The translations under genes were made by a program, and so were the position numbers. Source: Blastocatellia bacterium (GTDB lineage: Bacteria; Acidobacteriota; Blastocatellia; UBA7656). From it: a DNA stretch of 64,000 bases. The stretch lies in NCBI GenBank assembly GCA_963737945.1, contig CAVTUR010000030.1, positions 22,193 through 86,192 on the forward strand. The letters are read 5' to 3'. Shown piece by piece: positions 10,652 through 53,866 of the stretch. How positions within the stretch are numbered: position 1 is the stretch's first letter; each line of letters begins with the position of its first letter. The notes beneath the pieces are model-generated. The model saw only the letters and a program-made list of their open reading frames with translations. It searched no databases and was not told the origin of the DNA.

Positions 10652-13072
10652 ATGAATGGTTTATTTCAAGACGCGCGTTACGGCGTTCGCGTGTTGATCA
10701 AGACTCCTTCATTCACCGTGATCGCGGTGCTCGCCCTTGCGCTTGGCATCGGGGCGAACTGTGCCATTTTCAGCGTGGTGAATGCCCTGCTGATCAGACC
10801 CCTGGCCTATGGACAATCCGATCGTCTGGTAAAAATCAATCACAGGGACTCGACGTCCAGCGCCGACAACGCTGTTTCGCCTCCCGGCTTCGTTGATTAT
10901 CGAGATCAGAGCCACTCGTACGAGAGCATGTCCGCTGTTTACTTAGGCAACACGGCGTTGAACCTCAGCGAGCAGGGGGAGCCTGAGCGGCTTCAGGACG
11001 GACGCGTCTCGGCTAACTTTTTCACAACTCTCGGCGTCCGCCCAATGCTTGGTCGCGCGTTCGTTGCCGAAGAGGATCAGCCCGGGCGAAACCGCGTCGT
11101 AGTCCTCAGCCATAGTCTCTGGCAGAGGCGATTCGCCGGCGATCGTGATCTTGTTGGGAAAAACATCACACTCAATAGCCAGAGCTTTACGATCATCGGT
11201 GTGATGCCTGCCGGCTTTCGGTGGAAGGGCGATGATCTGTGGAGGCCGCTCGCGTTGGCTCCTGAGAGTTTCGCTCCGGATCAGCGCGGGAGTGAGTACC
11301 TCAGCGTTATTGCCCGGCTCAAACCGGACGTAACGGCTGAACAAGCTCAGTCCGAGATGGATGTGATCGCAGACACAATCCGGCAGAACAATCCCGCCTT
11401 TTATTCAGGGGACCCACACTGGGGGGTGGGGGTGACGCCGCTGCGCGAAGACGTTGTCGGCAGCATCAGGCCGGCTCTGCTGGTGCTGCTGGGCGCGGTT
11501 GGACTCGTGCTGCTGATAGCCTGCGCGAACGTCGCCAGCCTGCTGCTCGCCCGCGCAGCCACGCGACAAAAGGAGATCGCTATTCGTGCCGCGCTTGGCG
11601 CGAGCCGTTTCCACCTCGTACGCCAGTTGCTAGTCGAGAGCCTGCTGCTATCGCTGATCAGCGCCGGTCTGGGCCTGTTTCTTGCCGGCTGGGGTATCGA
11701 TCTGCTGGTGGCGATCGGGGGGAATAATATCCCGAGAGCCCAGGAAATAGGCATTGATGCACGAGTTCTCGGATTTACCGGCATGGTTTCGCTCCTGACC
11801 GCGCTGCTCTTCGGTCTGTTACCGGCAATACAGACCTCAAAGACCGATCTCCAGAGTATGCTCAAAGAGGGCGGACGCGGGTCGACCGGAGGCAGACGTC
11901 GCGCGCGCGCGCTGTTGGTCGTTGCCGATGTCGCGATGTCCCTTGTGCTGCTGATTGGCGCCGGTTTGCTCATAAAGAGCTTCGCACGGTTGGAAAATGT
12001 CAGCCCGGGATTTGCGCCTGAAGGTCTCCTGACGATGCAGGTGTCGCTGCCCGCTTTCAAGTACGGCGAGCCGAACCGGGTAAAAGCTTTTTACGATGGA
12101 GTGCTGGACGAGATCAGGTCCGTACCCGGCGTGCTATCGGTTGGCGCAGTTTCCGATTTGCCGTTGAGCGGTTCGGTCCACTCAGGCAGCTTCAACATTC
12201 AGGGTCGGACGATCGCCCCCGGCGAAGATGAGCTTCACGCGGACTTGAGATCGGCGACGCCGGAGTATTTTCAAACGATGAAGATCCCGTTGCTCCGAGG
12301 TCGTTTCTTCACCGAGCAGGACAACCGGGAGGCTCGTCCCGTGGCGATCATTGACGAGACACTGGCCCAGCACTACTTCCACGATGAAGATCCAATTGGG
12401 AAACACGTCGAGTTTCAACGAGGCAAACCGATTTGGCGGGAGATAGTGGGAGTCGTCGGGCACTTGAAGCACAAAGCTTTGGATGTCGAATTCAAGGATC
12501 AACTCTATGCGCCACACGCTCAGTTATCGAATTCAAATATGTTTCTGGTGGTGCGCGCGGCGAATGATCCGATGAGCCTGGCTTCATCGGTGCGCGCCGC
12601 TGTCAAAGCAATCGACAAAGACCAACCCGTTTACAAAGTGATGACAATGGAACAAGTCCTTGAGAATTCGCTGGCGCAAAGGCGACTGTCAGTAATTCTC
12701 TTAGGAGTCTTTGCCGCCGTGGCAATGGTGTTGGCGGCAGTCGGGCTTTACGGTGTGATTTCATTCTCGGTCACGCAGCGCACGAGAGAGATAGGGATCC
12801 GAATGGCGCTCGGAGCGGAGCGGCCCGACATATTCAAGATGGTGGTGAAGCAAGGCCTGACACTTGCTCTTGCTGGAGTTGGTCTTGGTCTGGTGGTCGC
12901 ATTCGCGCTAACCCGACTGATGTCAAGCCTGCTGTTCGGCGTTACTGCTACAGATCCGATGACATTTGCGGTGGTTCCTATGTTGCTTGCAGGAGTGGCC
13001 CTTGGAGCCAGTCTCGTGCCCGCACGCCGCGCAACCAGGGTTGATCCGATGGTCGCGCTTCGATACGAATGA
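10652..13072 (+). CDS. ADOP-type duplicated MacB permease (806 aa), array gene 1
   Basis: QDARYGVRVLIKTPSF, ALGIGANCAIFS, two MacB lobes, DPMVALRYE. RBS GGAGG. Confidence 0.96.
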   Translation: MNGLFQDARYGVRVLIKTPSFTVIAVLALALGIGANCAIFSVVNALLIRPLAYGQSDRLVKINHRDSTSSADNAVSPPGFVDYRDQSHSYESMSAVYLGNTALNLSEQGEPERLQDGRVSANFFTTLGVRPMLGRAFVAEEDQPGRNRVVVLSHSLWQRRFAGDRDLVGKNITLNSQSFTIIGVMPAGFRWKGDDLWRPLALAPESFAPDQRGSEYLSVIARLKPDVTAEQAQSEMDVIADTIRQNNPAFYSGDPHWGVGVTPLREDVVGSIRPALLVLLGAVGLVLLIACANVASLLLARAATRQKEIAIRAALGASRFHLVRQLLVESLLLSLISAGLGLFLAGWGIDLLVAIGGNNIPRAQEIGIDARVLGFTGMVSLLTALLFGLLPAIQTSKTDLQSMLKEGGRGSTGGRRRARALLVVADVAMSLVLLIGAGLLIKSFARLENVSPGFAPEGLLTMQVSLPAFKYGEPNRVKAFYDGVLDEIRSVPGVLSVGAVSDLPLSGSVHSGSFNIQGRTIAPGEDELHADLRSATPEYFQTMKIPLLRGRFFTEQDNREARPVAIIDETLAQHYFHDEDPIGKHVEFQRGKPIWREIVGVVGHLKHKALDVEFKDQLYAPHAQLSNSNMFLVVRAANDPMSLASSVRAAVKAIDKDQPVYKVMTMEQVLENSLAQRRLSVILLGVFAAVAMVLAAVGLYGVISFSVTQRTREIGIRMALGAERPDIFKMVVKQGLTLALAGVGLGLVVAFALTRLMSSLLFGVTATDPMTFAVVPMLLAGVALGASLVPARRATRVDPMVALRYE

Positions 13073-13075
13073 AAT

Positions 13076-13158
13076 TGATTTGCGATTGCCGATTTGCGGT
13101 TGCCGATTTCGGCTTACTCGACTTGGTTCTCGAACACGCAGTCGGCAATCGCAAATCA
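13076..13158. repeat. inverted GATTGCC/GATTTGC heptamer array (element A)
   Basis: GATTTGC GATTGCC GATTTGC GGTTGCC from 13077. Perfect 17-bp inverted repeat TGATTTGCGATTGCCGA (13076-13092) / TCGGCAATCGCAAATCA (13142-13158). Confidence 0.9.
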
Positions 13159-13172
13159 GAACGGATGAAATT

Positions 13173-15611
13173 ATGGAAACTTTGTGGCAGGACCTGCGGT
13201 ACGGATTTCGGATGCTGACGAAGAATCCGGGCTTCACCGCGATCGCGGTGGTCTCGCTGGCGCTTGGGATTGGGGCGAACACCGCGATCTTCAGTGTGGT
13301 GAACGCGGTATTGCTGAAGGGACTACCGTTTCACGACTCGGAACGGCTGGTGATGGTTTGGGAGGATGCGTCGTTCGCCGGTTTCCCCCGAAACACTCCC
13401 GCGCCGGCTAACTATGCCGATTGGAAGTCTCGAAGTGACGCCTTTGAGGACATGGCCGCGGTAGCTCGACGGAGCTTCAATCTGACGGGCGACGGCGAGC
13501 CCGAGCGGATCGAAGCGTATGCGGCTACTGGTAGTTTCTTTTCGCTGCTCGGCACCGACCCGGTCTTAGGCCGTACCGTTCTCCCGGACGACGACACGCC
13601 CGAGGCCAACAAGGTGGTAGTGCTCAGCTACAAGCTCTGGCGGCAACGGTACGGCGGCGACGCAGCCGTCATCGGCAGGGAGGTGCTCCTTAGTGGTGAA
13701 AAGCACACGATCGTAGGTGTGATGCCCGCTCGATTTCAGTTTCTTGAAAGCGATATCCAGGCGTGGGTGCCGATGGCGTTCACGCCAGACCAACTGGCAC
13801 AACGCGGCTCTCATTACCTTCAGGTAGTCGCACGGGTGAAGCCGGGGGTTTCGACGGAACAAGCAAACGCGGAGATTCAGTCGATCCAGCGACAGATCGC
13901 TCAGGACCATCCCAACGCAGCCGGCCGCATATCGGCTTATGTGATGCCTCTACATGATCAGGTGGCGGGTGACATTCGCCGGCCGCTGTTGGTGCTGCTG
14001 GTGTCGGTGGGTTTCGTCTTGCTGATCGCTTGCGCGAACATCGCCAACCTGCTCCTCTCGCGCGCAGCCAGCCGGCAACGTGAGATAGCGGTGCGCTCGG
14101 CCCTGGGCGCCAGCCGCCTTAGAATCATCCGGCAATTGATTACCGAGGGGGTGGTTCTGTCGATCTCCGGCGCGGCGCTAGGGGTTTTGCTGGCGCTGGA
14201 GAGTTTCGCGTTCTTGAGCCGTTTGATCCCGGACTCGCTGGCTATTTCGACAAGCCTGAGTCTCGACATGAAGGTTCTCGGATATACCCTGTTGGTATCG
14301 CTTGCCACTGCCGTTATCTTCGGACTTGCGCCGGCTGTTCAGGCGGCGAGAGTCGACCTGAACGAAGCTTTGAAACAGAGCGGCGGCCGGTCGGGGCTGA
14401 GCGCCGGAGGCAACAGGTTGCGAAGCTCGATGGTGGTGGCCGAAGTCGCGCTGGCGTTGGTGTTGCTGGTGGGTGCCGGGCTACTGATTCAGACATTCGT
14501 GAACCTGCGCGCTCCGTATTCCGCTATGCGTCCCGAAAACGTGTTGGTGTTACGAACTCAACTCTCCTCCAGCAAGTATCGCGACCAGCCTCATCGCGCC
14601 GCCTTTTACAGCCAGGTCCTCGAGCGCGTGACCGCCCTGCCCGGTGTCGTGTCGGCAGGCTATACAAATTCAGTTCCTCTCGATTGGAAAGGCGGCACCA
14701 GCGGCTTCTATCCGGAAGGTCTGACGATGGATCAGGCGCGCGCGGGTGGTTTATCTTACGACGCAAATCATCGCCAGGTGAGCTCGGATTACCTGAAGAC
14801 AATGGGCATACCCCTAAAACAGGGGCGTAGTCTGGAGGATCGGGACAACGAGCTGGCGATCCCCGTCGCCCTCGTCAACGAAACTATGGCCCGCCAATAC
14901 TGGCAGGGAGAAGCGCTCGGCAAACGCTTCAAACTCGGCGACCCCGATGAACCGATACCCTGGATCACCATCGTCGGGGTGTGCGGCGATATCCGGCAGA
15001 TGGGAGTCGACGAACCGGTCAAGGCAGAGATGTATCTGCCGTACAGACAGATCAAGGACCATCAGTTCTTTGCGCCGCGCGATCTGGTCTTGCGCACCGC
15101 AGGGGATCCGGTGAACCTGGTCGCCGCGGTACGCGACGAAATTCACGCGATCGATCCGGATCAACCGATCTCGAACGTTCGAACGATGGATGAGGTGTTG
15201 GGCGAGGAAACAGCTTCCCGGCGCTTAGGCATGACCCTGTTGACGGTATTCGCGGCTCTGGCTTTGCTGCTGGCCGCTCTTGGTATCTACGGAGTGCTCG
15301 CATACTTCGTAGTGCAGCATACACCTGAGATCGGGGTAAGGGTCGCGCTGGGCGCCCCTCGCTCCGGCATCCTTGCACTGGTGTTGAAGAAAGGGATGAC
15401 CTTGGCTCTCCTGGGAGTCGCTACGGGTTTGGGCGCTTCGTTCGCCTTAACCAGGCTGATGGCAAGCCTGTTGTTTGGTATGAGCGCAACCGATCCGGGC
15501 ACCTTTGTGATGGTGGCATTGCTGCTGGTCGCAGTGGCATTGGTCGCGTGTTACTTGCCCGCGCGAAGGGCGACCAAGGTAGATCCGATGATCGCGTTGA
15601 GATACGAATGA
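13173..15611 (+). CDS. ADOP-type duplicated MacB permease (~812 aa), array gene 2
   Basis: True start [21 protein letters not shown] at 13173; two lobes; DPMIALRYE. Confidence 0.96.
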   Translation: METLWQDLRYGFRMLTKNPGFTAIAVVSLALGIGANTAIFSVVNAVLLKGLPFHDSERLVMVWEDASFAGFPRNTPAPANYADWKSRSDAFEDMAAVARRSFNLTGDGEPERIEAYAATGSFFSLLGTDPVLGRTVLPDDDTPEANKVVVLSYKLWRQRYGGDAAVIGREVLLSGEKHTIVGVMPARFQFLESDIQAWVPMAFTPDQLAQRGSHYLQVVARVKPGVSTEQANAEIQSIQRQIAQDHPNAAGRISAYVMPLHDQVAGDIRRPLLVLLVSVGFVLLIACANIANLLLSRAASRQREIAVRSALGASRLRIIRQLITEGVVLSISGAALGVLLALESFAFLSRLIPDSLAISTSLSLDMKVLGYTLLVSLATAVIFGLAPAVQAARVDLNEALKQSGGRSGLSAGGNRLRSSMVVAEVALALVLLVGAGLLIQTFVNLRAPYSAMRPENVLVLRTQLSSSKYRDQPHRAAFYSQVLERVTALPGVVSAGYTNSVPLDWKGGTSGFYPEGLTMDQARAGGLSYDANHRQVSSDYLKTMGIPLKQGRSLEDRDNELAIPVALVNETMARQYWQGEALGKRFKLGDPDEPIPWITIVGVCGDIRQMGVDEPVKAEMYLPYRQIKDHQFFAPRDLVLRTAGDPVNLVAAVRDEIHAIDPDQPISNVRTMDEVLGEETASRRLGMTLLTVFAALALLLAALGIYGVLAYFVVQHTPEIGVRVALGAPRSGILALVLKKGMTLALLGVATGLGASFALTRLMASLLFGMSATDPGTFVMVALLLVAVALVACYLPARRATKVDPMIALRYE

Positions 15612-15613
15612 AA

Positions 15614-15780
15614 GGATTTTGGATTTTAGATTTTGGATTTTGGATTGCCCGTGTGCCGGGACCCTTATCGAACCGGGGGCGGTCCGCAATCCAAAATCCA
15701 AAATTCTCGCAGGTGCCGGGACCCTTATCGAACCGGGAGCAGTCCGCAATCCAAAATCCAAAATCTAAAATCCAAAATCC
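15614..15780. repeat. inverted GGATTTT heptamer array with internal 60-bp-period duplication (element B)
   Basis: Perfect 35-bp inverted repeat at 15614-15648 / 15746-15780. A 52-bp direct repeat at 15653-15704 and 15713-15764 has 2 mismatches. Confidence 0.95.
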
Positions 15781-15795
15781 CAGTAGGGGGATAAC

Positions 15796-18219
15796 ATGAA
15801 AGAACTTACCCAGGACATTCGCTACGGTTTTCGTATGTTGAGCACGAGACCCGGCTTCACCATCGTCGCAGTCATTGCGCTGGCGCTCGGGATCGGTGCA
15901 AACACCGCGATCTTCAGCCTGATCAACTCGGTGTTGCTGCGTCCGCTGCCGTATCCCGAGCCCGACCGGCTGGTAATGCTCGAAGAGAGCGAGAAGGACG
16001 GCAAGAGTTCAACTACCTCCTACGCGACAAGCAAAGACTGGCGCGAACGAAGCCAGACCTTCGAGAGTATTTCGGTCGTCAGAGACTGGAGCATCACTCT
16101 TACCGGCGCGGGCGAGCCTGAGATGCTGCAAGGGATGCGGGTGTCGGCAAACTATTTTGGCACCCTCGCGGTAAAGCCAGCTCTGGGCCGCGAATTCCTG
16201 CCTCAGGAAGACACCCCGGCAACCCGGCGCGTAGTCATCCTGAGCGACGGGCTGTGGCGACGCCGCTTCGGATCGGATGCCGATATCGTCGGGAGGCCGA
16301 TCGCGCTTGGCGGACAGACTTTCACCGTCGCCGGAGTGATGCCCAGGGGTTTTGAGGATCTTGTTTCGGCGCGCCTGTACCAAACGGCCGATTTGTGGGC
16401 GCCGCTGGGCTACGATGAAACCCTCCCCTGGGCCTGTCGCACCTGCCGGCACATTCAAGCCATTGCTCGCCTCAAACGCGGGGTGTCCCTTGAACAGGCG
16501 GGCGTGGAGATGAACGCAATCTCGCAGAATCTCATCGTCGAGCATCCGAAGGACTACGCTTTCGCGGGAGTAACAATCATTCCGTTGCTGGATAAATTCG
16601 TGGGGGCGGTGCGTCCGGCATTGTACCTGTTGCTCGGAGCGGTCGGTCTGGTGCTGCTGATCGCTTGCGCGAACGTCGCCAACTTGCTGCTGGCCCGGGC
16701 GACACAGCGTCGAAAAGAGATTGCGATCCGGTCAGCACTCGGAGCACGTCGCAGCAGAATAGTGCGGCAGTTGTTAACCGAGAGCACAATGCTCTCCCTG
16801 CTTGGCGCGGCATTGGGGCTGGCGCTGGTCTGGTGGAGCCTCGAGCTGCTGGCCGCGTTCAGCCCGCCAACTATTCTCCGGCTCAACGAAGTGAACGTCG
16901 ATGCGCGAGTGCTCGGATTCACCCTCGCGCTCTCGCTGCTCACCGGCATCATCTTTGGCCTTGCGCCGGCGCTTCAAGCCTCGAAGCTCGATCTCAACGC
17001 GGCGCTCAAGGAAGGCGCTCGGGGTGCTGGGGGCGGCGGCGGGCATCGCCTGCGAAATCTGCTGGTTGTCTCGGAGATCGCCCTGGCGCTGGTTCTGATG
17101 GTTGGCGCCGGACTGCTGGTTAGAAGTTTCCTGCGGGTGCTCGATGTCACTCCCGGTTTTGAGCCGTCCAACGTCATAACCATGAACGTCTCGGCGAACG
17201 GAACGAGATACGCAGAGGAGGCGGACGTTCGCGCTTTCTACGATGAAGTCATCAATCGCGTAGGCCACCTCCCGGGGGTGGAGGCCGCGGCCGTTGTCAG
17301 TAATCTGCCGCTCGGCGGCAACAAGGACATGTACGGGTTTCACATTGAGGAAAAGCCGCTCGCAAATCCCGAGGAGGCGCCCAGTGTCGAGCGCTATGTG
17401 GTCAGCCCCGGCTACCTGCGCGCGATGCGAATTCCTCTGCTTGCCGGCCGTGAGTTCAATGATCACGATGCGCCAAACGCGCCCCCCGTAGTCTTGATCA
17501 GCGTCTCTACCGCGGAGAGCATCTGGCCAGGAGAAGACCCGATCGGCAAGCGCGTGAGAATGGGGGGCATGGAAGGCCCGCTGCGCACCATCGTCGGTAT
17601 TACCGGCAACGTGAGTCATTATGCGTTGGACACACCGCCCGATTTGCAGGCCTACGTTCCGGAAGCGCAGTGGACAAACTCGGACCTGCAGCTAGTCGTG
17701 CGATCTCCCATCGATCCGAAGGCTCTGATGGAAGCGGTGCGCAACGAGATCTGGGCCGTGGATAAAGACCTGCCGATCTACAGCGTGGCGACGATGGAGC
17801 AATTGGTGTCCGCCTCAGTCGCGCAGCGGCGGTTCATAGTAATCTTGCTGGCACTGATGGCAGGACTCGCGGCGACCCTTGCGGCACTCGGAATCTACAG
17901 TCTGATGTCCTATTCAGTAACCCAGCGAACCCAGGAGCTTGGAATTCGAATGGCGCTGGGGGCTCAGTCAAACGATGTCCTCAGGCTTGTCGTCGGACAA
18001 GGCATTCTGCTTGCGATGGCCGGCATTGGTGTGGGGTTGGTTGCATCGGTGGCGTTGACGCGGGTGATGTCCAGTATGTTGTTTGGGATTGGAGCAACCG
18101 ATCCGCTTACGTTCACGGTCATCTCGCTGGCAGTGGCCGGAGTGGCTCTGGGGGCCAGTTTTGTGCCGGCCCGAAGGGCGACAAAAGTGGATCCGATGGT
18201 CGCGCTGAGATGCGAATGA
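15796..18219 (+). CDS. ADOP-type duplicated MacB permease (807 aa), array gene 3
   Basis: QDIRYGFRMLSTRPGF, two lobes, DPMVALRCE. Confidence 0.96.
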   Translation: MKELTQDIRYGFRMLSTRPGFTIVAVIALALGIGANTAIFSLINSVLLRPLPYPEPDRLVMLEESEKDGKSSTTSYATSKDWRERSQTFESISVVRDWSITLTGAGEPEMLQGMRVSANYFGTLAVKPALGREFLPQEDTPATRRVVILSDGLWRRRFGSDADIVGRPIALGGQTFTVAGVMPRGFEDLVSARLYQTADLWAPLGYDETLPWACRTCRHIQAIARLKRGVSLEQAGVEMNAISQNLIVEHPKDYAFAGVTIIPLLDKFVGAVRPALYLLLGAVGLVLLIACANVANLLLARATQRRKEIAIRSALGARRSRIVRQLLTESTMLSLLGAALGLALVWWSLELLAAFSPPTILRLNEVNVDARVLGFTLALSLLTGIIFGLAPALQASKLDLNAALKEGARGAGGGGGHRLRNLLVVSEIALALVLMVGAGLLVRSFLRVLDVTPGFEPSNVITMNVSANGTRYAEEADVRAFYDEVINRVGHLPGVEAAAVVSNLPLGGNKDMYGFHIEEKPLANPEEAPSVERYVVSPGYLRAMRIPLLAGREFNDHDAPNAPPVVLISVSTAESIWPGEDPIGKRVRMGGMEGPLRTIVGITGNVSHYALDTPPDLQAYVPEAQWTNSDLQLVVRSPIDPKALMEAVRNEIWAVDKDLPIYSVATMEQLVSASVAQRRFIVILLALMAGLAATLAALGIYSLMSYSVTQRTQELGIRMALGAQSNDVLRLVVGQGILLAMAGIGVGLVASVALTRVMSSMLFGIGATDPLTFTVISLAVAGVALGASFVPARRATKVDPMVALRCE

Positions 18220-18222
18220 AGA

Positions 18223-18400
18223 CGATTTTGGATTTTAGATTTTGGATTTTGGATTACCTACGTATCGGAATCGTCGATTTTGGATTTTGGATTTTGGATT
18301 ACCCGTGTACCGGATCGTCGATTTTAGATTTTAGATTTTGGGATTTTGGATTGCCCACGTACCGGGATGGTCAATCATCCAAAATCTAAAATCCAAAATC
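18223..18400. repeat. GGATTTT heptamer element with three left arms and one right arm (element C)
   Basis: Units start at 18223, 18275 and 18319. Each is a run of (G/A/C)GATTTT heptamers, then GGATT(A/G)CC..GTA.CGG.AT.GT. The right arm is ATCC AAAATCT AAAATCC AAAATC at ~18377-18400. Confidence 0.93.
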
Positions 18401-18418
18401 ACACTCAGAGGGAAAAAG

Positions 18419-20866
18419 ATGAAAGGGCTTTCCCAGGATCTGCGCTACGGGTTTCGGACTCTTATCAGGAATCCGGGCTTTACGGCTATCGCTGTCGTTT
18501 CGCTGGCTCTCGGTATCGGTGCAAACACGGCGATCTTCAGCGTGGTAAACGCGGTGCTCCTGCGGCCGTTGCCGTTTCATGATCCGGAGCGGCTGGTGAT
18601 GGTCTGGGAAGATGCGTCGGCGATCGGCTTTCCACGCAGTGATGTGGCCGCTGCCAACTACATGGATTGGAAAGCGCAGAACAAGGTGTTTGAGGACATG
18701 GCTCCGCTCAACTGGAAGAGCTTCAATCTCACCGGCGACGGCGAGCCGGAAAGGATTCTCGGTCACGGGGTAACTTCCAATTTTCTTTCGTTGCTCGGTG
18801 TTCAACCGATAATCGGCCGAAACTTTTCTGTCGAAGAAGACAACCCCGACGCGACACGAGTTGCAATTCTCAGCTACGGGCTGTGGCAAGGTCGTTACGC
18901 CGGCGACTCGGCTATTGTCGGGCGCGACATCCTGCTCAACGACGAGAAATTCGCCGTCGTGGGAGTGATGCCCGCGGACTTCCAGGTTTTGCAGGGCGAT
19001 ATCGGTGTGTGGGTCCCTCTCGCTTTAACGCCTCGCCAGATTGCGGATCGTGATAATCACTACCTGACGATTGTAGCTCGAACAAAACCAGGCGTTTCCG
19101 TCAAACAGGCGAACGCGGACATCTTGACTATCTCTCAGCGAATCGCGCGTGACTATCCTGACGATGCCGCCAACCTGAGTTCAGCGGTGGTATCCATGCG
19201 CGAACAACTCGCGGGAAAGGTGCGTCAACCGCTTATCATGTTGCTGGTCGCGGTGGGATTTGTGCTGCTGATTGCGTGCGCCAACATAGCCGGTCTCTTG
19301 TTGTCTCGCGCCACCGCGCGTCGCAAGGAGATAGCCGTTCGGACAGCACTCGGTGCCGGCCGGTGGCGGATTATCCGGCAGTTGCTGACCGAGAGTGTTC
19401 TGCTTGCTGGCGCGGGCGGAGCGCTCGGATTGCTGGTGGCGGTGTGGAGTTTCACACTGCTGAGGCAACTGATTCCCGACGGCATGGTCTATTTGACCGA
19501 CTTGAGTTTCGATCTGCCCGTGGTGTGCTTTGCGATGGCGGTGTCCCTGCTGACCGGGATTGTTTTCGGAATAGCGCCGGCGGTACAAGCCTCCAGAATC
19601 GATCTGAACCAGGCTTTGAAACAGGGCGGAGGGCGCGCGAGCACAGGCGCCGCAGGGAACACGCTCCGCGGGGCATTGGTAATCGTTGAAGTAGCGCTGG
19701 CGATGGTGCTGCTGATCGGAGCCGGGTTGATGATTCGAACCGTTTTCAATCTGCACGGACAATATGCCGTATTTCGACCGGAGAGATTGTTGACGATGAG
19801 AACCACGCTGCCCGACAACAAGTACCGCGATCTGGGCGAGTACGTTGCAAAAGAACATGCTCGGCGCGTCGCGTTCTACGACCAGGTGCTCGAACGGGTT
19901 GGAGCGCTGCCGGGAGTCGTTGGGGCCGGATACACCACTTCAGTACCTCTTGCATGGAAGGGAGGCGCAAACGGTTTCATCCTCGAAGGCCGCCAACCCG
20001 AACCCGGCCTCGTACCAAACGCTATCCAACGCCAGATCAGCACGGCGTACTTCCAGACTCTGGGGATCAGCCTGCGCGAAGGCCGCTACTTTGATGACCT
20101 CGATGGTCCGGAGTCCCGACCCGTCGCGATCATAAATGAGTCGATGGCGCGCGCGTATTGGCCCGACGAGAATGCGGTGGGCAAGCGGTTCAAATTTGGC
20201 ACAACCGGCGCGCCGTGGATGACAATTGTTGGGATCGTCGCCGATGTCCGTCAGATGGGCATGGATGCGCCCGTAAAAGCGGAAATGTATCTGCCCTATC
20301 GCCAGGTCTCTTCGCACCCGTGGTTTGGTCCTCGCGATCTTGTTGTTCGCACTTCCGGGGATCCGATGACTCTTGCTTCAGCAGTACGCCAGGTAATTCG
20401 AACCATCGATCCGAATCAACCGGTCTCGAACATTGGAACGATGGAGGATTTACTCACCAGGGAGACGGGGTCGCGCCGTCTCGGAATGATCTTGTTGTCC
20501 GCGTATGCCGGGCTGGCATTGCTTCTCGCTTCGCTTGGGATCTACGGCGTACTTTCCTACCTTGTCGTGCAACAGACGCCGGAAATAGGAGTGCGCCTTG
20601 CCCTGGGTGCGTTGCCGCGAGACATCCTGGGATTGGTGATCAAGAAGGGCGCCGTCCTTGTTGTGAGCGGGGTAGCGATCGGCGGAATCGCGGCTCTCGC
20701 ACTGACTCGATTGATGGCGAGCCTGCTCTTCGGCGTGAGCGCCGCCGATCCTCTTGTTTTCCTCGGGATTTCGGCGCTGCTGACGGGAGTGGCTCTGGCA
20801 GCCTGTTTCGTGCCGGCTCGCCGGGCGACGAAAGTCGATCCCATGACAGCGCTTCGGTACGAATAG
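18419..20866 (+). CDS. ADOP-type duplicated MacB permease (~815 aa), array gene 4
   Basis: True start [21 protein letters not shown] at 18419; two lobes; DPMTALRYE. Confidence 0.96.
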
Positions 20867-20873
20867 GAAACCG

Positions 20874-23800
20874 ATGACAAACTTATGGCAAGACGTTCGC
20901 TACGGATTCAGGATGCTTCGGAAGCATCCGGGGTTTAGCGCCATTGCGATTGTGACGCTGGCCATGGGTATCGGCGTCAATACGTCGATTTTCAGTATCG
21001 TTAATGCGCTGTTGTTGCGCCCGATACAATTCAAGGACTCGGATCGGCTGGTTCTGTTTTGGAACCACTATCCGGGATTGGAGATCCCGCAGGACTGGCT
21101 TTCGCCCGGCGAATACACCGACGTGAAAGCCCAGTCGGATGTGTTTGAAGAGATGACGATCGCCAACGGCGGAAGCATCAACCTCAACGACGCCGGTGCT
21201 CCTGAGCGAGTCGAAGGCATTCGGGCGTCCTCGAGTTTCTTTTCATTGTTGAATATTCAACCTGTTCAGGGCCGCGCCCTGCTGCCGGACGAAGACGAAC
21301 CGGGCAAGCCGCCCACTGCCGTCATCAGCCACCGGTTGTGGCAGCGTCGATTCGGCGCAGATCCTAACTTCGTCGGCAAGACGATCTCGCTCAATGGCCA
21401 GCCGACGACAGTTGTAGGCGTTCTTCCTGCGAGCCTCTCTCTCGATAAGGAGATGCTGCCTACGGTCGCGGGGATTGAACGGGTCGATGTCATACGGCCA
21501 CTTGCCCTGGACGACGAAGACAGAAGCAATCACGCAAGTGATAACTACACTGTTATGGCACGCCTCAAACCCGGCGTTTCGATGGGCGAGGCGCAAGTCC
21601 AGGTCGACACGATAGTCGCGCGGCTCCAGCTGGCGTATCCGAAGAGTTACCCAGCAACCAGCGGATTCGCGGTAGGCGTGGTTCCGATGCTCGAGCAAGT
21701 CGTGGGCGGTGCCCGGCCCGCCGTTCTGATGTTGTTTGTGGCGGTCGGGTTCGTGTTACTCATTGCCTGCGCGAACGTCGCCAACTTGCTTCTTGCGCGA
21801 GCAGTCGGGCGAGAAAAAGAGTTTTCAATTCGCACCGCTCTCGGGGCAGGGCGTCTGCGCCTCATTCGCCAGTTGCTCGTCGAAAGCATGTTGCTCACGC
21901 TTGCGGCGACGTTAGCGCTGGGCATAGGCGCCAACACCGCGATCTTCAGCGTGGTCAATGCGATGATGCTAAAACCGCTTCCCTATTCGGACCCGACTCG
22001 GCTGGTTTCGGCAGGCTCGGTAAACAGTCTGAATCCGCAAGGTGAGGTCGATGGAGTATCGCCGGCGGATTTCTGGGACTGGAAGGATCAGAGCACGTCG
22101 TTTGAGCAACTCGCCGCTCTATCTGGTGGCGGCGGATTCAGCTTAAAAGACGCGGATCAACCGGATGTCTTCAGTGGCGCACGAGTGTCCTTCAATTTCT
22201 TTCAAACCTTTGGTGTGCAGCCGCTGCTGGGCCGTGCCTTCTCCGCCGAAGACGGGCAGCTCCACGCGCCCGAAACTGTAGTGTTGAGTCACAGGCTCTG
22301 GATGCGACGCTTTGGCGGTGACCCGGCGGTCGTTGGAAAGACTTTCAACAACGCTGACGGCGGTACGACGGTGATCGGAGTGATGGCGCCCGACTTCAAC
22401 TTTCCAAGCTACGCCGACGTATGGGTACCGCTCGCGCGCAACTCAGGCGAGATGCGCAACCGGTCCAATCGCTACTTCAGTGTTGTTGGAAGGATCAGAG
22501 CCGATCAGTCGATTGAAAGCGCCGAAGCTGAGCTTGAGACCATCGCCAGTCGATTGGAGGCCGAGCACCCGCAAGCAAACAGGGGATGGACCGCGCACCT
22601 GACGCCGCTGCGAGACAATGTGATGGGTAGCGTGAGGACTGCGCTGTTCGTGCTGCTGGGTGCGGTCGGTTGTGTCCTGCTCATCGCGTGCACAAACGTC
22701 GCGAATCTGCTGCTCGCTCGCGCGGCGTCGAGGCGGAGGGAGATGGCGATTCGGCTCGCGCTCGGCGCCGGCCGCGCCAGGATCATGAGGCAGTTGCTCA
22801 CCGAAAGCCTGGTGCTTGGCATCGCGGGCGGCGCCATCGGGTTGGCGTTTGCAGTGTGGGGTCTGGACCTGCTGATCGGAATTCTGCCCTCCAGGGAGGC
22901 ATTCCAACTCCCGGTCGAGATCCGCATCGATCGAATGGTCATGTTGTTGACCCTTGCCGTCTCGGCCCTCACCGGGATTGTGTTTGGCCTCGTCCCCGCA
23001 TGGCAGGCGTCACGGCCCGATGTTGGCGAGTGGCTGAAAGAAGGCGACCGCTCTGGATCGAGCGCCGGTCACAAGCGAACTCGCAGCGCTCTGGTCGTCG
23101 CTGAAATTGCTATTGCTCTTGTCTTGCTTGTCGGCGCCGGGCTGCTTGTCCAAAGCTTCGTCAGGTTGAGACACGTTGATCTCGGATACGACCCGATTGG
23201 TCTGATGACGATGTGGGTGCCGGCGTCGCCAGCCAGATATCCCGACAATGAAACTAAGGCGCGGTTCTATAAGCGGCTCCTCGAACGGGTTTCTCAAGTT
23301 CCCGGCACAGAAGACGTCGCGTTGAGCTCGGCGCCGTGGTTCGGCTTTCTCAATTTTCAATTCAACATCGCTGACGAAACGTTGCCGGCCGGCGATGCCA
23401 CCGTTCGTTACAGCTCAATCGCCCCGGACTACTTCAGGGTGCTCAGAGCTCAAGTTCGCTCCGGTCGCGATTTCGATGATCGGGATGACAGCAGAGCTCC
23501 GAGCGTCGCAATCATCAATGAAGCTCTTGCGCGGCGGTACTTCCCGGAGGGCAGTCCGATCGGAAGAAGGATTGTGATTGGGTATCTTGGCCGCAGATTG
23601 ACACCCGAGATAGTTGGCGTATCGGCGGACATCAAACAAGAGGAATTGGGGGCGCCAACAAAACCCGAAGTATACGTTCCATATCAGCAGGTCCCCTGGC
23701 TGGGAGCAGCACTAGTAATTCGCGCTGCGAGGGGTGACCCGATGACCCTAAAGAAAGACCTGCAGCAGGCGATTTGGGAAGTCGACAAGGACCTTCCGGT

Positions 23801-24242
23801 TTCCGAGGCGTCAACGGTCGAGGGGCACCTGTCGGATCTCGTGGCCGAGCCTCGGCTGTACACGTTGCTGCTCGGTGCGTTCGCGACTGCCGCGTTGATT
23901 CTTGCCTCGATTGGGATCTACGGTGTTATGTCGTATTCGGTAACCGAACGTACACGCGAGATAGGCATTCGCATGGCGTTGGGTGCGAAGCGTCTGGATG
24001 TGCTTACGTTCGTGGTGAGGCAGGGTTTGTTACTGGCGGTGACTGGCGTGGCGATCGGCGTTGTGTTGGCTTTCGCGTTGACTAGAGTGATTTCGAGCCA
24101 GCTGTACGGCATCTCTGCCACCGACCCGTTGACCTTTACATTGATACCGTTGCTGCTTGCATCGGTGACCGTGGCGGCCTGTTTTGTGCCGGCGCGTCGC
24201 GCAACGAAAGTCGATCCGATGATCGCACTGCGATGCGAATGA
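20874..24242 (+). CDS. chimeric ADOP permease (1122 aa; half unit fused to a near-complete unit), array gene 5
   Basis: Contains the head motif twice (MGIGVNTSIFS near residue 30 and [11 protein letters not shown] near residue 348) and [15 protein letters not shown] twice. The junction reads RQLLVESMLLTLAA|[14 protein letters not shown] at ~21897-21915. Confidence 0.92.
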   Translation: MTNLWQDVRYGFRMLRKHPGFSAIAIVTLAMGIGVNTSIFSIVNALLLRPIQFKDSDRLVLFWNHYPGLEIPQDWLSPGEYTDVKAQSDVFEEMTIANGGSINLNDAGAPERVEGIRASSSFFSLLNIQPVQGRALLPDEDEPGKPPTAVISHRLWQRRFGADPNFVGKTISLNGQPTTVVGVLPASLSLDKEMLPTVAGIERVDVIRPLALDDEDRSNHASDNYTVMARLKPGVSMGEAQVQVDTIVARLQLAYPKSYPATSGFAVGVVPMLEQVVGGARPAVLMLFVAVGFVLLIACANVANLLLARAVGREKEFSIRTALGAGRLRLIRQLLVESMLLTLAATLALGIGANTAIFSVVNAMMLKPLPYSDPTRLVSAGSVNSLNPQGEVDGVSPADFWDWKDQSTSFEQLAALSGGGGFSLKDADQPDVFSGARVSFNFFQTFGVQPLLGRAFSAEDGQLHAPETVVLSHRLWMRRFGGDPAVVGKTFNNADGGTTVIGVMAPDFNFPSYADVWVPLARNSGEMRNRSNRYFSVVGRIRADQSIESAEAELETIASRLEAEHPQANRGWTAHLTPLRDNVMGSVRTALFVLLGAVGCVLLIACTNVANLLLARAASRRREMAIRLALGAGRARIMRQLLTESLVLGIAGGAIGLAFAVWGLDLLIGILPSREAFQLPVEIRIDRMVMLLTLAVSALTGIVFGLVPAWQASRPDVGEWLKEGDRSGSSAGHKRTRSALVVAEIAIALVLLVGAGLLVQSFVRLRHVDLGYDPIGLMTMWVPASPARYPDNETKARFYKRLLERVSQVPGTEDVALSSAPWFGFLNFQFNIADETLPAGDATVRYSSIAPDYFRVLRAQVRSGRDFDDRDDSRAPSVAIINEALARRYFPEGSPIGRRIVIGYLGRRLTPEIVGVSADIKQEELGAPTKPEVYVPYQQVPWLGAALVIRAARGDPMTLKKDLQQAIWEVDKDLPVSEASTVEGHLSDLVAEPRLYTLLLGAFATAALILASIGIYGVMSYSVTERTREIGIRMALGAKRLDVLTFVVRQGLLLAVTGVAIGVVLAFALTRVISSQLYGISATDPLTFTLIPLLLASVTVAACFVPARRATKVDPMIALRCE

Positions 24243-24245
24243 ACT

Positions 24246-24305
24246 GATTGCCGATCGGCAATTGCCGATTGCCGATTGAAGGAGAAATCCCTGGCATTCG
24301 GCAAT
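24246..24305. repeat. GATTGCC heptamer array with degenerate inverted arm (element D)
   Basis: GATTGCC GATCGGC AATTGCC GATTGCC GATTGAA (24246-24280); GGCATTC GGCAAT (24293-24305). Confidence 0.8.
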
Positions 24306-24316
24306 ATAAGGGGACT

Positions 24317-26776
24317 ATGGAAACACTTTGGCAGGACTTGCGTTACAGCGCCCGAATGTTAGTAAAGAACCCTGGCTTTACCCTGATCGCCGTGATCACG
24401 CTGGCGTTGGGTATCGGCGCGACGACGGCAATTTTCAGCGTGGTCAACGGCGTCCTGTTGCGTCCGCTCGACTATCACGATCCTCAACAAATCGTCACGC
24501 TCTTGCACAAAGGACGAAGCCCGGTCTCTCCGGCGAACTTTATGGACCTCCGCGCCAGTAGCCAGAGCTTCGAGTTGATGGCGGCCGCGGAGGCATGGGG
24601 CGGCACCCTCGCAAGCGATGACCGGCCGGAAGCCGTCAGCGGGCTGCGGATGGGCGATGGTCTTTTTGATTTGCTCGGCGTTCAGCCTTTGTTGGGTCGG
24701 ACCTTGCGAGCCGAAGACTTCGAGCCCGGCAAAGATCATGTGCTGGTGCTCAGCCACAAGCTCTGGCAGCGTGCGTTTGGCGGCGACCCTTCGGTCGTCG
24801 GAAGACCTCTTGCGCTGAGCGGCGAACCCTATACCGTGGTTGGCGTGATGCCGCCACAGTTTCAATTCCCTCCGTTCTGGTCGACGCGCGCCGAGTTGTG
24901 GGCCCCGCTCGATTTGAGCAATCGCGCAACCAGCCGCGGCGGCAATTCATTGCGAGTGTTTGCCCGACTCAAACCCGGCGCAAGCCGGACCCAGGCTCAA
25001 GCTGAGATAGACGCGATCAACATTCAACTCGCCCACGCCTACCCGGACCAAAACACCGGGCTCGACATCCGGGTAGACCCGTTGAACGAGAAAGTGGTCG
25101 GCAACGTTCGTCCGGCCCTGCTGATCCTCTCGGGCGCGGTTGGATTTGTGTTGTTGATCGCCTGTGCGAATGTAGCTTGTTTGCTGCTGGCGCGCGCGGC
25201 AACCCGGCAGAAGGAAACCGCGGTGCGAGTCGCACTCGGCGCAACGCGCCGGCGCATCCTGAGACAGTTGTTGACCGAAAGCCTGCTGCTTTCTTTGTGC
25301 GGTGCGGCAGTCGGGATACTCGTGGCGGAGTGGGGTGTAGAATTGCTGACGGCGCTGCTGTCGGGCAACAGCTCCAGCTTCAGTGTTCGTTTGCCGCGGT
25401 TGAACGAGGTCAAGATTGATGCGGGGACGCTCGGCTTCACCTTCACGGTTTCGCTGGTGACCAGCGTGCTTTTTGGTCTTGCCCCGGCGCTCAGCGCGTC
25501 AAAACCGGATCTGAATCAGGTGCTCAAAGAGAGCGGGCGCGGGACGACTGGCGGACGCCGCCGGTTGCGCGAAACACTGGTCGTGGCCGAACTCGCGTTG
25601 GCGCTGGTGATGCTGATTGGCGCCGGGCTGCTGATGACCAGCTTCGTAAGGCTGCAATCGGTTGATCCCGGCTTCAACCCTCAAAAGCTGCTAACGATGA
25701 CAACGTCGCTGGCTGGCGCTTCGCAATACGTAGGGCCGGCGCGCGAGGCCTTTTACCAGCAACTGACGGATCGGCTGACCGCCCTGCCCGGCGTCGAGTC
25801 GGCTAGCGCCGTCAATCATCTGCCGCTTGCCGGTGATGTATGGGGAACTACGCTCGCAATCGAAGGGCGTCCGTTGGCGGCGCCCGGAGAGAGCATCGTC
25901 GCCGCCTTTCGCGTGAGCCGCCCGGACTACTTTCGAACGATGGGTATCCAGTTGAGCGCCGGGCGAGATTTCACCCAGCGCGACACTCCTGAGGCCCCTG
26001 GCGTGGTAATCCTCAACGAAACGCTGGCCCGGCGTTACTGGCCTGCCGAAGACCCCTTAGGCAAACGGATCACACTCGACGATCCCCGCGGCACGACGAA
26101 AACGCCGGAATGGCTCACCATTGTAGGCATGGTGAAGGACGTCAAACAGGAAAGCTGGACGGATGCGCCGTCAAATGAGATTTATTTGCCGTTCCAACAG
26201 AGTGGAGGGTTCTACAGCGGTGTGGCCAGGCAGTTCACCTCAATGACGATTGTCGTGCGCACGACGGTCGAACCGCGCGGTCTGGCGGCCGCGGTCCAGG
26301 ATACGGTCAGGACATTCGATCGCGCCATGCCGGTCTCCAATGTCATGAGCATGGAACAGGTGATTGCTGACGCTCTCTGGCAGCCGCGTTTCAATTTGCA
26401 GTTGATCGGGTTGTTCGCAGGCCTTGCGCTGGTGCTGGCAGCCATAGGGCTTTACGGAGTGATGTCGTACTCGGTGGCCCAGCGCACACACGAGGTGGGT
26501 TTGCGAATGGCGCTGGGCGCCCAGCGGGCCGACGTGATAACACTCGTCCTGAGGCAGGGCATGAAGCTGACCGTGGTAGGGGTGGCTCTCGGCTTGTTTG
26601 CGTCTGTGGCGCTGACTCGGCTGATGGCGAATCTGCTGTTCGGAGTGAGCGCAACGGACCCGAGGGTCTTTGGGGTCATCGCGCTGATACTCGTGGGCGT
26701 CGCGCTGCTTGCCTGTATTGTGCCCGCGCATCGCGCGACGAGGGTCGATCCGATGGTAGCGCTGAAATATGAATAA
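24317..26776 (+). CDS. ADOP-type duplicated MacB permease (~819 aa), array gene 6
   Basis: True start [21 protein letters not shown] at 24317; two lobes; DPMVALKYE. Confidence 0.96.
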
Positions 26777-26779
26777 AGA

Positions 26780-26874
26780 GATTGACGATTGCCGATTGGC
26801 GATTGCCGATTGAAAGAAGAAGCGTGATCTATCTTCAATCGCAAATCGGCAATCGGCAATCGCGTATCGGCAAT
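26780..26874. repeat. inverted GATTGCC heptamer array (element E)
   Basis: Five left heptamers at 26780-26814 (GATTGAC GATTGCC GATTGGC GATTGCC GATTGAA). Right arm TTCAATC GCAAATC GGCAATC GGCAATC GCGTATC GGCAAT. Confidence 0.92.
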
Positions 26875-26886
26875 GGGAGGAAATCA

Positions 26887-29322
26887 ATGGAAGCACTGTG
26901 GCAAGACTTGAAGTACGGAGCCCGAATGCTCGCCAAGAGCCCGGGATTCACATTGGTCGCCGTAATTGCGTTGGGTCTGGGTATCGGCGCAAACACCGCA
27001 ATCTTCAGCGTGGTGAACGCGGTTCTGATTCGCTCGCTTCCATTCCGTAATCCGGACCGTCTCGTCATGGTGTGGGAAAACAACCGCCCGCGGGGCCGTG
27101 ACCAGAACGTCATCTCCCCCGCAAACTACCAGGACTGGCGTGATCAAAACACGGTCTTCGATTCGATGGCAGCGATGTTCGACTCTCGCACAAACCTGAC
27201 CGGGGTTGACGATCCCGAGGAATTGGCGACACAGCTGGTTGAGCCTAACTTCTTCGATCTGCTTGGCACCAGTGCCGCGCTCGGTCGGACGTTTAACCTC
27301 GACGAAGGCCAACCGGGAAAGGATCAGGTAGTCGTATTGAGCCAGGGGTTATGGAAGCGCCGTTTTGGTGGCGACCCGGGGATCGTCGGCAAAGCCATAA
27401 AGCTCGGCGGCAGAGACTTCACCGTCGTAGGCATCGCACCGTCGGGTTTGCAGTTGATTATTCGACAAGGTTCCCTCACCGGAAAACAGGCGCAGTTGTG
27501 GATGCCCCTGGGATTGAGCCCGGCCTCACGAGTGCGTCGCGGTCGTTCCATCATGGCGATCGCGCGACTCAAACCGGGAGTAACGCTAGGGCAAGCGCAA
27601 GCCGAGATGGACGGTATCGCCGCACATCTCGAACAGCAGTATGTGGACTTTAATACCGGTTGGGGCGTGAACCTTGTCCCTTTGCAAGATCAGCTGGTCG
27701 GTGCGATTCGTCCCGCGTTGCTGGTATTGTTGGGAGCGGTCGCTTTTGTATTGTTAATCGCATGTGCAAATGTCGCAAATCTGCTGCTGGCGCGCGCGGC
27801 CACCAGACAGAGAGAGATAGCGATTCGCACCGCTCTTGGCGCCGGGCGAGGGAGAATCGTTCGCCAGTTGCTCACTGAGTCAACTGTGCTCGCGGCGTTT
27901 GGAGGATTGCTGGGTTTGTGGCTGGCGATGTGGGGAGTCGACTTGCTGCTTGCTCTGACCCCCAAGGACCTGACCGGGTTGAAGGATGTCGGGATCGATT
28001 ACCGGGTGCTCGGGTTCACAATGGCTGTTTCGGTCTTGACTGGAGTGCTGTTTGGTCTTGCTCCAGCCCTCGAAGCATCGCGGCCGAATCTAAACGAGTC
28101 GTTGAAGGAGGGTGGCCGGGGAGCGGTAACCGGCGGGCGCAGTCATCGCTGGCGTAGCGTGTTCGTTGTTGTAGAAGTCGCTTTGGCGATGGTGTTGCTT
28201 ATCGGCGCGGGGTTGATGATCCGGAGTTTCGCACGCTTGCAATCGGTGGATCCGGGCTTCGACTCGAAGAACCTTCTCACGGTGCGGCTTCTTTTGCCCT
28301 CCTCCAAGTACGGTCAGGATAGTCAACTACTAGGTTTCTTCAAACAACTTGTGGAGCGTTTGCAGTCGCTGCCTGGGGTTCGTTCGGCCGGAGCAATAAG
28401 CGTACTGCCTTTTGGCAGCGGCGGAGCGGCGACCAGCATCGAGGTCGAAGGCCGCCCGGCGCCGCCCCCCGGTCAGGATCTGGTGGGCGACGTGCGTGTA
28501 GTCGATGGGGGTTACTTCGGCACGATGGGGATTCCGCTGTTGCAGGGACGGACTTTCACCGAGCGGGAACTGGCTCAGGAGACGCACGTGGTGATCATCA
28601 ACGAGGCGATGGCGCGCGAGTTTTTCCCTGGGGAAGATCCGATCGGCAAGCGGGTAACCATCGCTATGAAGAAGGAGAACGTCCCAAACGAAATCATCGG
28701 GGTGGTTCGCGATGTGAGACACAAGGATTTGGAGACTCCGGCGCGAGCGATGACCTACTGGCCTTATCCGGAGCTCACCTATTCGGGGCTGACGCTGGTG
28801 GTGCGAACGGAGTCTGAACCGCTCGCACTTGCGGATGCAATACGCCGAGAGGTTCTGGCGCTGGACAAGGACCAGCCGATCGCCGACATAAGCACTATGG
28901 AACACCTGCTTTCGGACTCGGTGTCGGGCGCACGCTTCAGCACGATGTTACTGAGCGTTTTCGCCGGGTTGGCGCTGTTGCTGGCGGCGGTGGGGATCTT
29001 TGGTGTGATGTCTTACGGGGTGTCGGAACGCACTCACGAAATCGGGGTGCGAATGGCATTGGGCGCGCAGGCTTCGCACGTGCTCGCGCTGGTTGTACGA
29101 CAGGGGATGGTCCTGACTCTGGTCGGGATAGTGATCGGATTGGTAGCTGCCTTCGGGGTAACGAGGGTCATGGCCAGTTTGCTGTATGGAGTGAGCCCGA
29201 CCGATCCGCTGACGTTTGCGGCGATCTCGGTGCTGTTGGCATCCGTCGCGCTGTTGGCAAGTTATCTTCCCGCGAGGCGGGCGACCAAGGTTGATCCAAT
29301 GATAGCGCTGCGATACGAGTGA
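26887..29322 (+). CDS. ADOP-type duplicated MacB permease (~811 aa), array gene 7
   Basis: True start [21 protein letters not shown] at 26887 after GGGAGG; DPMIALRYE. Confidence 0.96.
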
Positions 29323-53859: not shown

Positions 53860-53866
53860 CGGTTAG

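Follow-up and report, generated by a model that had tools for sequence, protein, structure and literature searches.

What are the hairpins that fill the junctions of a permease array in a Blastocatellia bacterium (assembly GCA_963737945.1), and do they belong to the permease genes? The stretch of DNA analyzed here (64,000 nucleotides [nt] of contig CAVTUR010000030.1, positions 22,193 to 86,192; hereafter the window) carries seven tandem genes for ADOP-family duplicated permeases, and five of the six junctions between them hold an element in which tandem 7-mers are followed by a spacer and then by their reverse complements. In the initial annotation, these hairpins were taken for possible integron-like sites at which whole permease genes could be inserted, excised, or shuffled, with a role in RNA processing or stability as the alternative. 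We consider it probable that the junction elements are gene-less copies of a dispersed cassette family, in which a gene of the PF05635 family, whose members are the four-helix-bundle proteins known from 23S rRNA intervening sequences, lies between inverted heptamer arrays. The permease genes themselves do not act as cassettes; the elements preferentially land, or are retained, at permease 3' ends.

Window hairpins share their arms with gene-bearing cassettes

The five junction elements, designated A to E (Table 1), were analyzed with Tandem Repeats Finder (TRF) and by folding, with mononucleotide shuffles as the reference (z scores). The analysis confirmed that they run from just past one stop codon to just before the next ribosome-binding site (RBS): each starts 2 to 4 nt past the stop codon and ends 11 to 18 nt ahead of the next ATG, with a period of 7, 3.4 to 5.6 copies by TRF, and a minimum free energy (MFE) of -26 to -77 kcal/mol (z, -4.3 to -9.8). 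As had been stated, the units belong to two families, GATTGCC (A, D, and E) and GGATTTT (B and C). The duplicated arms that had been remarked upon were found as well: the core and inner right arm of B are duplicated internally, and every left arm of C comes with a core related to that of B (TRF periods, 45 to 52 and 7). Because the loops measure only 23 to 100 nt and gave no match to a four-helix-bundle profile, A to E are gene-less derivatives at most, not complete cassette members. A search against Rfam returned sub-threshold noise from miRNA hairpins only.

Gene-bearing copies were sought as matching inverted arrays that lie further apart. Inverted pairs 400 to 750 nt apart enclose one small open reading frame (ORF); four of these ORFs belong to PF05635 (E values, 1e-14 to 1e-37), two further ones are frameshifted PF05635 copies, and the gene-bearing cassettes of this genome are 440 to 800 nt long. 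An intact cassette (C10:115371-115808) occupies an ADOP-ADOP junction in a second ADOP cluster, where the stop codon of one permease gene is followed after 1 nt by a GATTTGC/GATTGCC arm, the intact four-helix-bundle gene, the reverse-complement arm and, 9 nt further on, the start of the next permease gene. Its left arm is identical to the left arm of window element A at 37 of 38 positions and to that of E at 29 of 32. At the next junction of this second cluster (C10:118237-118506), the same arms surround a C-terminal fragment of a PF05635 gene (E = 4e-10). For element B, the counterparts come from relatives: a cassette in a genome of another family (G040:C80) has arms identical at 32 of 32 positions to both arms of B, and a GGATTTT-armed cassette in G015 matches those of B at 30 of 32. 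Each of the two cassettes directly follows a stop codon and abuts the next gene, and the two encoded proteins share 78% identity. The neighbors of the G040 cassette resemble genes for a sensor kinase and a response regulator.

Since the arms of A and B thus match those of gene-bearing cassettes almost base for base, the best reading of A to E is that they belong to the four-helix-bundle cassette family and lack the gene. Two loci that keep C-terminal gene fragments, C10:118237 and C13:124854, represent intermediate states of decay and form a series with the two frameshifted copies, and the loops of most short elements are too short to keep gene traces. We also considered whether elements and permease genes had been duplicated together and rejected this: pairwise amino acid identity among the seven permease paralogues is 41 to 60%, whereas the arms are near perfect, so the arms must be far younger than the gene duplications.

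The association of gene and arrays extends beyond these examples. In this genome, heptamer arrays flank 9 or 10 of the 11 PF05635 loci, and each of the 11 runs in the same direction as its upstream host gene. In a survey of the class, for which the top-scoring PF05635 locus was taken from each of 30 genomes, about 20 loci had arrays within about 100 nt on both sides; at most of these two-sided loci the units were mutually reverse-complement, with a heptamer particular to each locus. One genome (G026) has no PF05635 gene, five weak period-7 arrays in 400 kb, and no excess of period 7; in another (G031), with 19 PF05635 genes, 400 kb sampled from contigs that carry four-helix-bundle genes contained 83 arrays. 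The cassette at G000 C18:199835-200641 has unusually long arms of about 180 nt each, the left arm consisting of 26 GGAGGAT units and the right arm of 26 TCCATCC units, so arm length can expand greatly.

Table 1. Hairpin elements and permease genes of the window (MFE in kcal/mol; z scores against mononucleotide shuffles)
Feature	Position	Strand	Description	Support
Element A	13076..13160		GATTTGC/GATTGCC arms, right arm shortened; gene-less	MFE -43.6, z -7.4
Element B	15614..15785		GGATTTT arms, perfect 35-bp outer stem; gene-less	MFE -77.4, z -9.8
Element C	18223..18400		GGATTTT; three tandem left arms, one right arm	MFE -58.8, z -5.7
Element D	24246..24305		GATTGCC, decayed; left arm intact, about 11 nt of right arm left	MFE -26.0, z -4.3
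Element E	26780..26874		GATTGCC arms, intact hairpin; gene-less	MFE -44.7, z -8.0
Element of the same class outside the array	53864..53964		TAGTCCG/CTACGGA hairpin	MFE -66.2, z -11.2; TRF
Seven tandem ADOP-family duplicated permease genes	10652..29322	+	10652-13072, 13173-15611, 15796-18219, 18419-20866, 20874-24242, 24317-26776, 26887-29322	TIGR03434, 995-1328 bits (cutoff, 622)
ADOP deletion scar	~10387..10606	+	Codons ~1-55 (stops, frameshift) joined to last 18 codons	blastx against window ADOP proteins
Chimeric ADOP gene, 1122 aa	20874..24242	+	N-terminal ~340 residues of one ADOP joined to residue ~21 onward of a complete ADOP	TIGR03434, blastp

Elements follow stop codons throughout the genome

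The elements are not special to the permease array. In the whole genome (7.3 Mb, 56.8% G+C), TRF reported 769 rows of period 7 compared with 178 of period 6 and 311 of period 8, and heptamer hairpins are therefore not a product of chance. The 647 non-overlapping heptamer arrays yielded 172 inverted pairs, which merged into at least 151 elements of at least 30 heptamer families; almost half of the arrays sit in inverted pairs. The further copy in the window, outside the array, fills the junction of two minus-strand, efflux-related genes, with the stop codon of the upstream gene inside its arm. Genome-wide, the elements follow the stop codons of many unrelated kinds of genes rather than marking permease boundaries.

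Their placement was assessed on gene coordinates from our own crude caller, which combines ORFs and codon usage (5652 genes). Co-directional gaps hold 98 elements (0.116 per kb of intergenic DNA), convergent gaps 19 (0.117 per kb), and divergent gaps 12 (0.038 per kb); 21 elements overlap called ORFs, and one lies at a contig end. The distance from the upstream stop codon to an element in a co-directional gap has a median of 4 nt (interquartile range, 0 to 10) and that from the element to the next start a median of 19 nt. No more than 40 nt of other spacer is left by 57% of the elements at co-directional junctions, while such short spacers account for 1.6% of intergenic bases. Some stop codons belong to the first repeat unit, and in some convergent pairs the element occupies the entire stop-to-stop gap. 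Upstream of the elements, we found no common sequence motif beyond the stop codon itself.

The arms, which contain 2.3 to 26 units, follow a fixed arrangement within each family in 123 of 125 elements, e.g., always GGATTTT...AAAATCC. A polarity is also seen across the 172 inverted pairs of unrelated families, of which 73% have more G than C in the 5' arm and 7% more C than G, with T exceeding A in 65%. The heptamer hairpins thus read as a G/T-rich arm, a loop, and a C/A-rich arm on either strand.

Such placement might point to intercistronic RNA elements that the host has selected as 3' stabilizers, RNase III sites, devices for translational coupling, or attenuators, independently of any mobile cassette. 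The position flush after stop codons and ahead of the RBS, the 3-fold depletion per kilobase in divergent (promoter) gaps, and the wholly filled convergent gaps would all fit, as would the ADOP junctions of four species, which bear hairpins of differing heptamers as if their presence had been kept while the sequence was replaced. A like role has been proposed for the short tandemly repeated repetitive (STRR) hairpins of cyanobacteria (PMC2670836). However, the folds show no bias toward the transcribed strand, with means of -66.1 and -65.5 kcal/mol for sense and antisense (51 versus 46 elements) and 353 versus 340 G:U pairs. Nor are the elements canonical intrinsic terminators: the stems are 25 to 35 bp long and some are AT-rich, and on reading the sequence (no terminator scan was run) no T-run follows, the stems of B and C being succeeded by CCAGTAGGGGG and CACACTCAGAGGG, respectively. 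Swings in copy number between congeneric genomes, which may have no hit or more than 200, look more like selfish dynamics than conserved regulation, A and D decay in place, and host selection leaves the small gene inside the same arms unexplained. We therefore regard this explanation as rather unlikely, although an RNA-level role in processing or stability, the alternative that had been raised at the outset, is plausible by analogy with the rRNA intervening sequences that RNase III excises.

Conserved arms recur across genomes

Within a family, an arm of about 32 nt is conserved, including a variant unit (GATTTTGGATTTTAGATTTTGGATT), and the loops are unrelated in both sequence and length. More than 60 sites in this genome share the arm of about 32 nt with the variant unit AGATTTT, which other genera carry as well. 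Genomes of the same taxonomic family may have no pattern hit for a given heptamer family or more than 200, and the heptamer families vary independently of one another. GGATTTT and GGTTTCT, respectively, gave 66 and 46 hits in this genome, 0 and 149 in G011, 1 and 229 in G012, 179 and 1 in G021, and 257 and 181 in G018; neither had a hit in five genomes of a sister family (f2). An exact 25-mer of element B was found in Acidobacteriota, Cyanobacteria (Nostoc, Calothrix, Fischerella, and Rivularia), Chloroflexota, Planctomycetota, Rhodothermales, Nitrospirota, and others, and several of these groups show it in the same inverted layout. In a metagenome-assembled genome of the Thermoanaerobaculia (contig DATLFB010000092.1, L026, around 2800 to 2970), GGATTTT arms surround a complete GAACGAT/ATCGTTC hairpin, an arrangement that suggests insertion of one element into the loop of another.

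These observations bear on a simpler explanation, in which the elements are pure simple-sequence repeats that arise locally by slippage favoring 7-nt units, with template switching to produce inverted pairs, and that involve neither mobility nor a protein partner. Heptamer repeats are overrepresented among bacterial simple-sequence repeats, and slippage has been proposed as the source (cited in PMC4692102); the wide range of units per arm and the arm duplications within B and C could have such an origin. Yet slippage would not place the same arm, variant unit included, at dozens of sites and in other genera, nor would it give one fixed arrangement of arms per family or conserve arms and gene together between different taxonomic families, and the placement flush after stop codons is not expected either. 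As a full account of the elements, it is quite improbable.

Permease 3' ends as a preferred site

The tie to the permease array stood in part: the elements are not specific to the array, but ADOP 3' ends are enriched for them. A heptamer array lies within 25 nt past the stop codon in 14 of 46 ADOP genes and in 209 of 5606 other genes (odds ratio, 11; P = 1e-9), and without the window's own array the count is still 9 of 39 (P = 1e-5). Several heptamer families occur at ADOP 3' ends, as they do in three relatives and on one metagenome contig. The enrichment is real and is not explained by recent gene conversion, because the flanks of element A and of the C10 cassette are only moderately similar by eye. 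The same observation, set beside arms identical at all but one position, leaves gene conversion between paralogous junctions unsupported as the source of the shared arms.

Related species carry comparable junctions. Three congeneric species, in which the beta-lactamase-like orthologue is 72 to 74% identical, have ADOP arrays of differing gene content upstream of this orthologue, and their junctions bear hairpins of GGTTCAG/GGTTCCG, GAGGATA, and GTGGTCA, with GATTGCC present in two of the three. A search of metagenome contigs for an empty site at the 3' end of gene 13173-15611 yielded three contigs, none from the same species; a GGATTTT hairpin was present at one distant metagenome ADOP junction.

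Could the hairpins nevertheless be integron-like recombination sites that bound ADOP cassettes? The occupancy of five of six junctions, the 11-fold enrichment, and the varying content of ADOP arrays beside the same beta-lactamase-like gene in congeneric species would be in keeping with such sites. The deletion scar and the chimeric gene that had been noted at this locus are both real, but their breakpoints lie inside coding sequence and not at the elements. For the scar this applies to both breakpoints (blastx); in the chimera, TIGR03434 matches in two stretches, the better of which aligns residues 342 to 1122 with profile positions 21 to 803, and residues 1 to 345 were checked by blastp. Likewise, ADOP 3'-end remnants lie between genes in a congeneric species (G007:C45, L013; 7946-8010, ending ...DPMVALLRE*, and ~18330-18385, ending ...ALQYE*); permease genes were lost there by deletions that end within coding sequence. 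Paralogues with no more than 60% identity argue against recent shuffling, and most elements stand at unrelated genes. The ten genes scanned beside the array (PadR regulators, MacB/FtsX-type permeases, a cyclase, a DUF433 protein, and TPR proteins) include no recombinase or tyrosine-recombinase integrase (IntI), and no gene for a Y1 transposase is closely flanked by arrays. An attC site is an imperfect palindrome with R''/L''-L'/R' boxes and extrahelical bases, present once per cassette, whereas the arms here are periodic 7-mers of at least two unrelated sequences, and the same elements follow hundreds of non-cassette genes. The integron-like reading is thus largely refuted, and we give it very little credence. 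What remains of the proposed cassette-type system is that the elements do belong to an apparently mobile cassette family; the cassette is the four-helix-bundle gene inside the hairpin, not the permeases between hairpins.

Equally little can be said for doublets of repetitive extragenic palindromic sequences (REPINs) mobilized in trans by a Y1 HUH transposase (REP-associated tyrosine transposase, RAYT), since none of the 18 PF01797 (Y1_Tnp) matches in the genome, which together with the dispersed intergenic inverted doublets and their 3'-end bias might have invited this idea, is closely flanked by arrays (the nearest lie 1.5 to 2 kb off), at least 30 unrelated arm sequences would demand many cognate RAYTs, and the spacers are not conserved within a family. 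The candidate link to a RAYT or other HUH nuclease that had been considered at the outset was therefore rejected. Among the Y1_Tnp genes, four or five of about 320 amino acids are near identical (G000 C15:2273-3238, C15:15892-16857, C22:104882-105847, C10:349524-350489, and C3:77674-78648), with the same score of 59.1 bits for three of them. These copies probably stem from an IS200/IS605-like element that was active recently and has no relation to the heptamer arrays.

A model for the cassette and its gene-less copies

The cassette reading draws on what we observe: the architecture, the position flush after the stop codon, the orientation of the gene along the host operon, a series of decay states, and the independent dynamics of the families. 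In its complete form, the element consists of four or five or more tandem 7-mers, a promoter-less gene of about 120 codons for a PF05635 protein (the 23S rRNA intervening sequence [IVS] or Avd-like protein), and the reverse-complement 7-mers. This cassette may spread as a unit, with neither a transposase nor target duplication, and may lose its gene by deletion, leaving gene-less hairpins in the manner of miniature inverted-repeat transposable elements (MITEs). Having no promoter, the cassette would ride on host transcription, and in the polycistronic RNA its arms might pair as a stem of 25 to 35 bp that loops out the insert and brings the stop codon and the next RBS together again. Removal of the insert from the path between stop codon and RBS could explain why the elements are tolerated at tight operon junctions. 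The stem would also be a likely substrate of RNase III, as in the excision of IVSs from 23S rRNA.

A broader proposal can be made only tentatively. Inverted heptamer arrays and the four-helix-bundle gene may constitute one widespread class of transposase-free mobile elements, a kind of "intervening sequence of messenger RNAs", which inserts after stop codons and is looped or cut out via its periodic stem. In this proposal, the STRR and heptamer repeats described elsewhere would be its gene-less relics, the protein would recognize or propagate the arms, and ADOP 3' ends would be a preferred target.

Several observations weigh against the cassette reading and its extension. Remnants of the four-helix-bundle gene were found in 2 of the 151 short elements, so for most of them the descent from a gene-bearing copy is drawn from the arms alone. 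This genome yielded no gene-bearing cassette with GGATTTT arms; such cassettes were seen solely in relatives. Cassette proteins that are 70% identical may bear unrelated heptamers, so the gene is not always bound to one set of arms and could instead enter hairpins that already exist. On the same evidence we set aside a specificity of protein for heptamer, which is weak at best, although the two closest pairs of proteins do share arms. The co-occurrence of PF05635 and arrays at the level of whole genomes rests on three genomes, with the G031 sample drawn from gene-bearing contigs, and the error of our gene caller carries into the context statistics. Neither G:U pairs nor stability is in excess on the sense strand, so there is no positive signal of RNA-level selection. 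Finally, no pair of occupied and empty sites, no target-site duplication, and no transposase was seen among the copies compared; the mobility of the family is thus presumptive.

Relation to known repeats and intervening sequences

Reports of tandem heptamer repeats go back to 1990 for cyanobacteria; Xanthomonas and Beggiatoaceae were added later. We know of no accepted origin or function for them, and, to our knowledge, no role has been established for PF05635 "S23p/IVP" proteins since these were found within rRNA intervening sequences. Avd, which resembles the cassette protein as judged by a weak match to PF22296 (bAvd-like; 23 to 31 bits with a cutoff of 40 bits), is a pentamer, and the closest solved structure to the cassette protein, 2RLD, has five chains in the entry. 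Avd serves diversity-generating retroelements as their accessory protein; beside the PF05635 cassettes we found no reverse transcriptase, template repeat, or variable repeat, the seven RVT_1 matches of the genome lying on other contigs or far from PF05635 loci.

The STRR sequences of filamentous cyanobacteria are 7-bp hairpin repeats of unknown function between genes, including cotranscribed genes such as hupS-hupL (PMC2670836). GGGAATC/GGGGAYT heptamer repeats of Xanthomonas and Nostoc lie 0 to 50 nt from stop codons or overlap them, and some form inverted pairs (PMC4692102); in Nostoc, heptamer repeats have been proposed as regulators (bioRxiv 10.1101/2022.06.06.494920). The elements described here resemble both groups in being intergenic tandem repeats of 7-nt units, often in inverted pairs that can form hairpins, with many heptamers per genome, and the window elements have the 7-nt unit, three or more copies, dispersal, and hairpin-forming pairs typical of STRRs. 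They differ from the repeats as published in their strict polarity, in the pairing of almost half of the arrays, and in the tie to a four-helix-bundle gene. The suggestion of G-quadruplexes for the Xanthomonas repeats does not fit GGATTTT or GATTGCC units.

The S23p-encoding IVS in the 23S rRNA of Coxiella is excised by RNase III (PMC4990558). Like the ORF-bearing IVSs of Coxiella burnetii, Leptospira, and others, which are about 430 nt long, the elements are small, selfish-looking inserts with ends that pair as a stem, and the gene-bearing cassettes have a PF05635/S23p ORF in the loop and would, as IVSs do, lie within a host transcript. Unlike IVSs, which occupy helix 45 of 23S rRNA, they stand between protein-coding genes and have stems of periodic heptamers, and the window copies lack an ORF. 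A, B, and E do share arm homology with the PF05635 cassettes, and all of A to E share the position after a stop codon.

With MITEs and REPINs, the elements share an excess of gene-less over gene-bearing copies, conserved inverted arms, an intergenic 3'-end bias, and bursts in copy number. They differ in that the internal sequence is not conserved and in that neither nuclease nor recombinase activity is known for the associated small protein. No target-site duplication was visible on reading the sequences beside about 80 copies, and the matching arms were found to enclose PF05635 as the sole gene but no transposase.

In our reading, the elements are a variant of STRR-like repeats and IVS-like cassettes, and the link between heptamer arrays and PF05635 connects the two puzzles in a further, unrelated lineage. 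We found no paper on heptamer repeats in Acidobacteria and none that links PF05635 genes to heptamer arrays. The locus provides a dense natural test bed: a row of seven similar genes combines junctions that are occupied, decayed, or empty, and an intact cassette is at hand in a sister ADOP cluster. Looping out or cleavage of the arms in RNA, should it take place, would also shape expression along many operons of these soil bacteria. For annotation, the hairpins are better masked as dispersed elements than treated as operon-specific regulators or recombination sites.

Other features of the window

The remaining junction of the permease array (20866/20874) consists of a 7-nt spacer with no hairpin element. 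Upstream, the array is bordered by the PadR regulators and the further MacB/FtsX-type permeases; a beta-lactamase-like gene lies downstream.

A second family of hairpin repeats, with units of 8 to 10 nt (GTCTTTGC / CGCAAAGA(TC)), occurs in the window at 10221-10329, 29340-29390, and 50618-50653. A full inverted pair of this family lies 5' of the ADOP scar, a lone array of the left-arm type 3' of the last ADOP gene, and a further copy within an efflux operon; the design is like that of the heptamer elements with a different period. Longer tandem repeats are found at 43787-44153, where a 111-nt unit is present in 3.3 copies (79% matches) in the gap adjoining the minus-strand gene 41598-43643, and at 56819-57969, where units of 237 and 474 nt (4.9 and 2.4 copies; 75 to 80% matches) lie inside the minus-strand ORF 55228-62964, which encodes 2578 amino acids and is probably a large repetitive surface protein.

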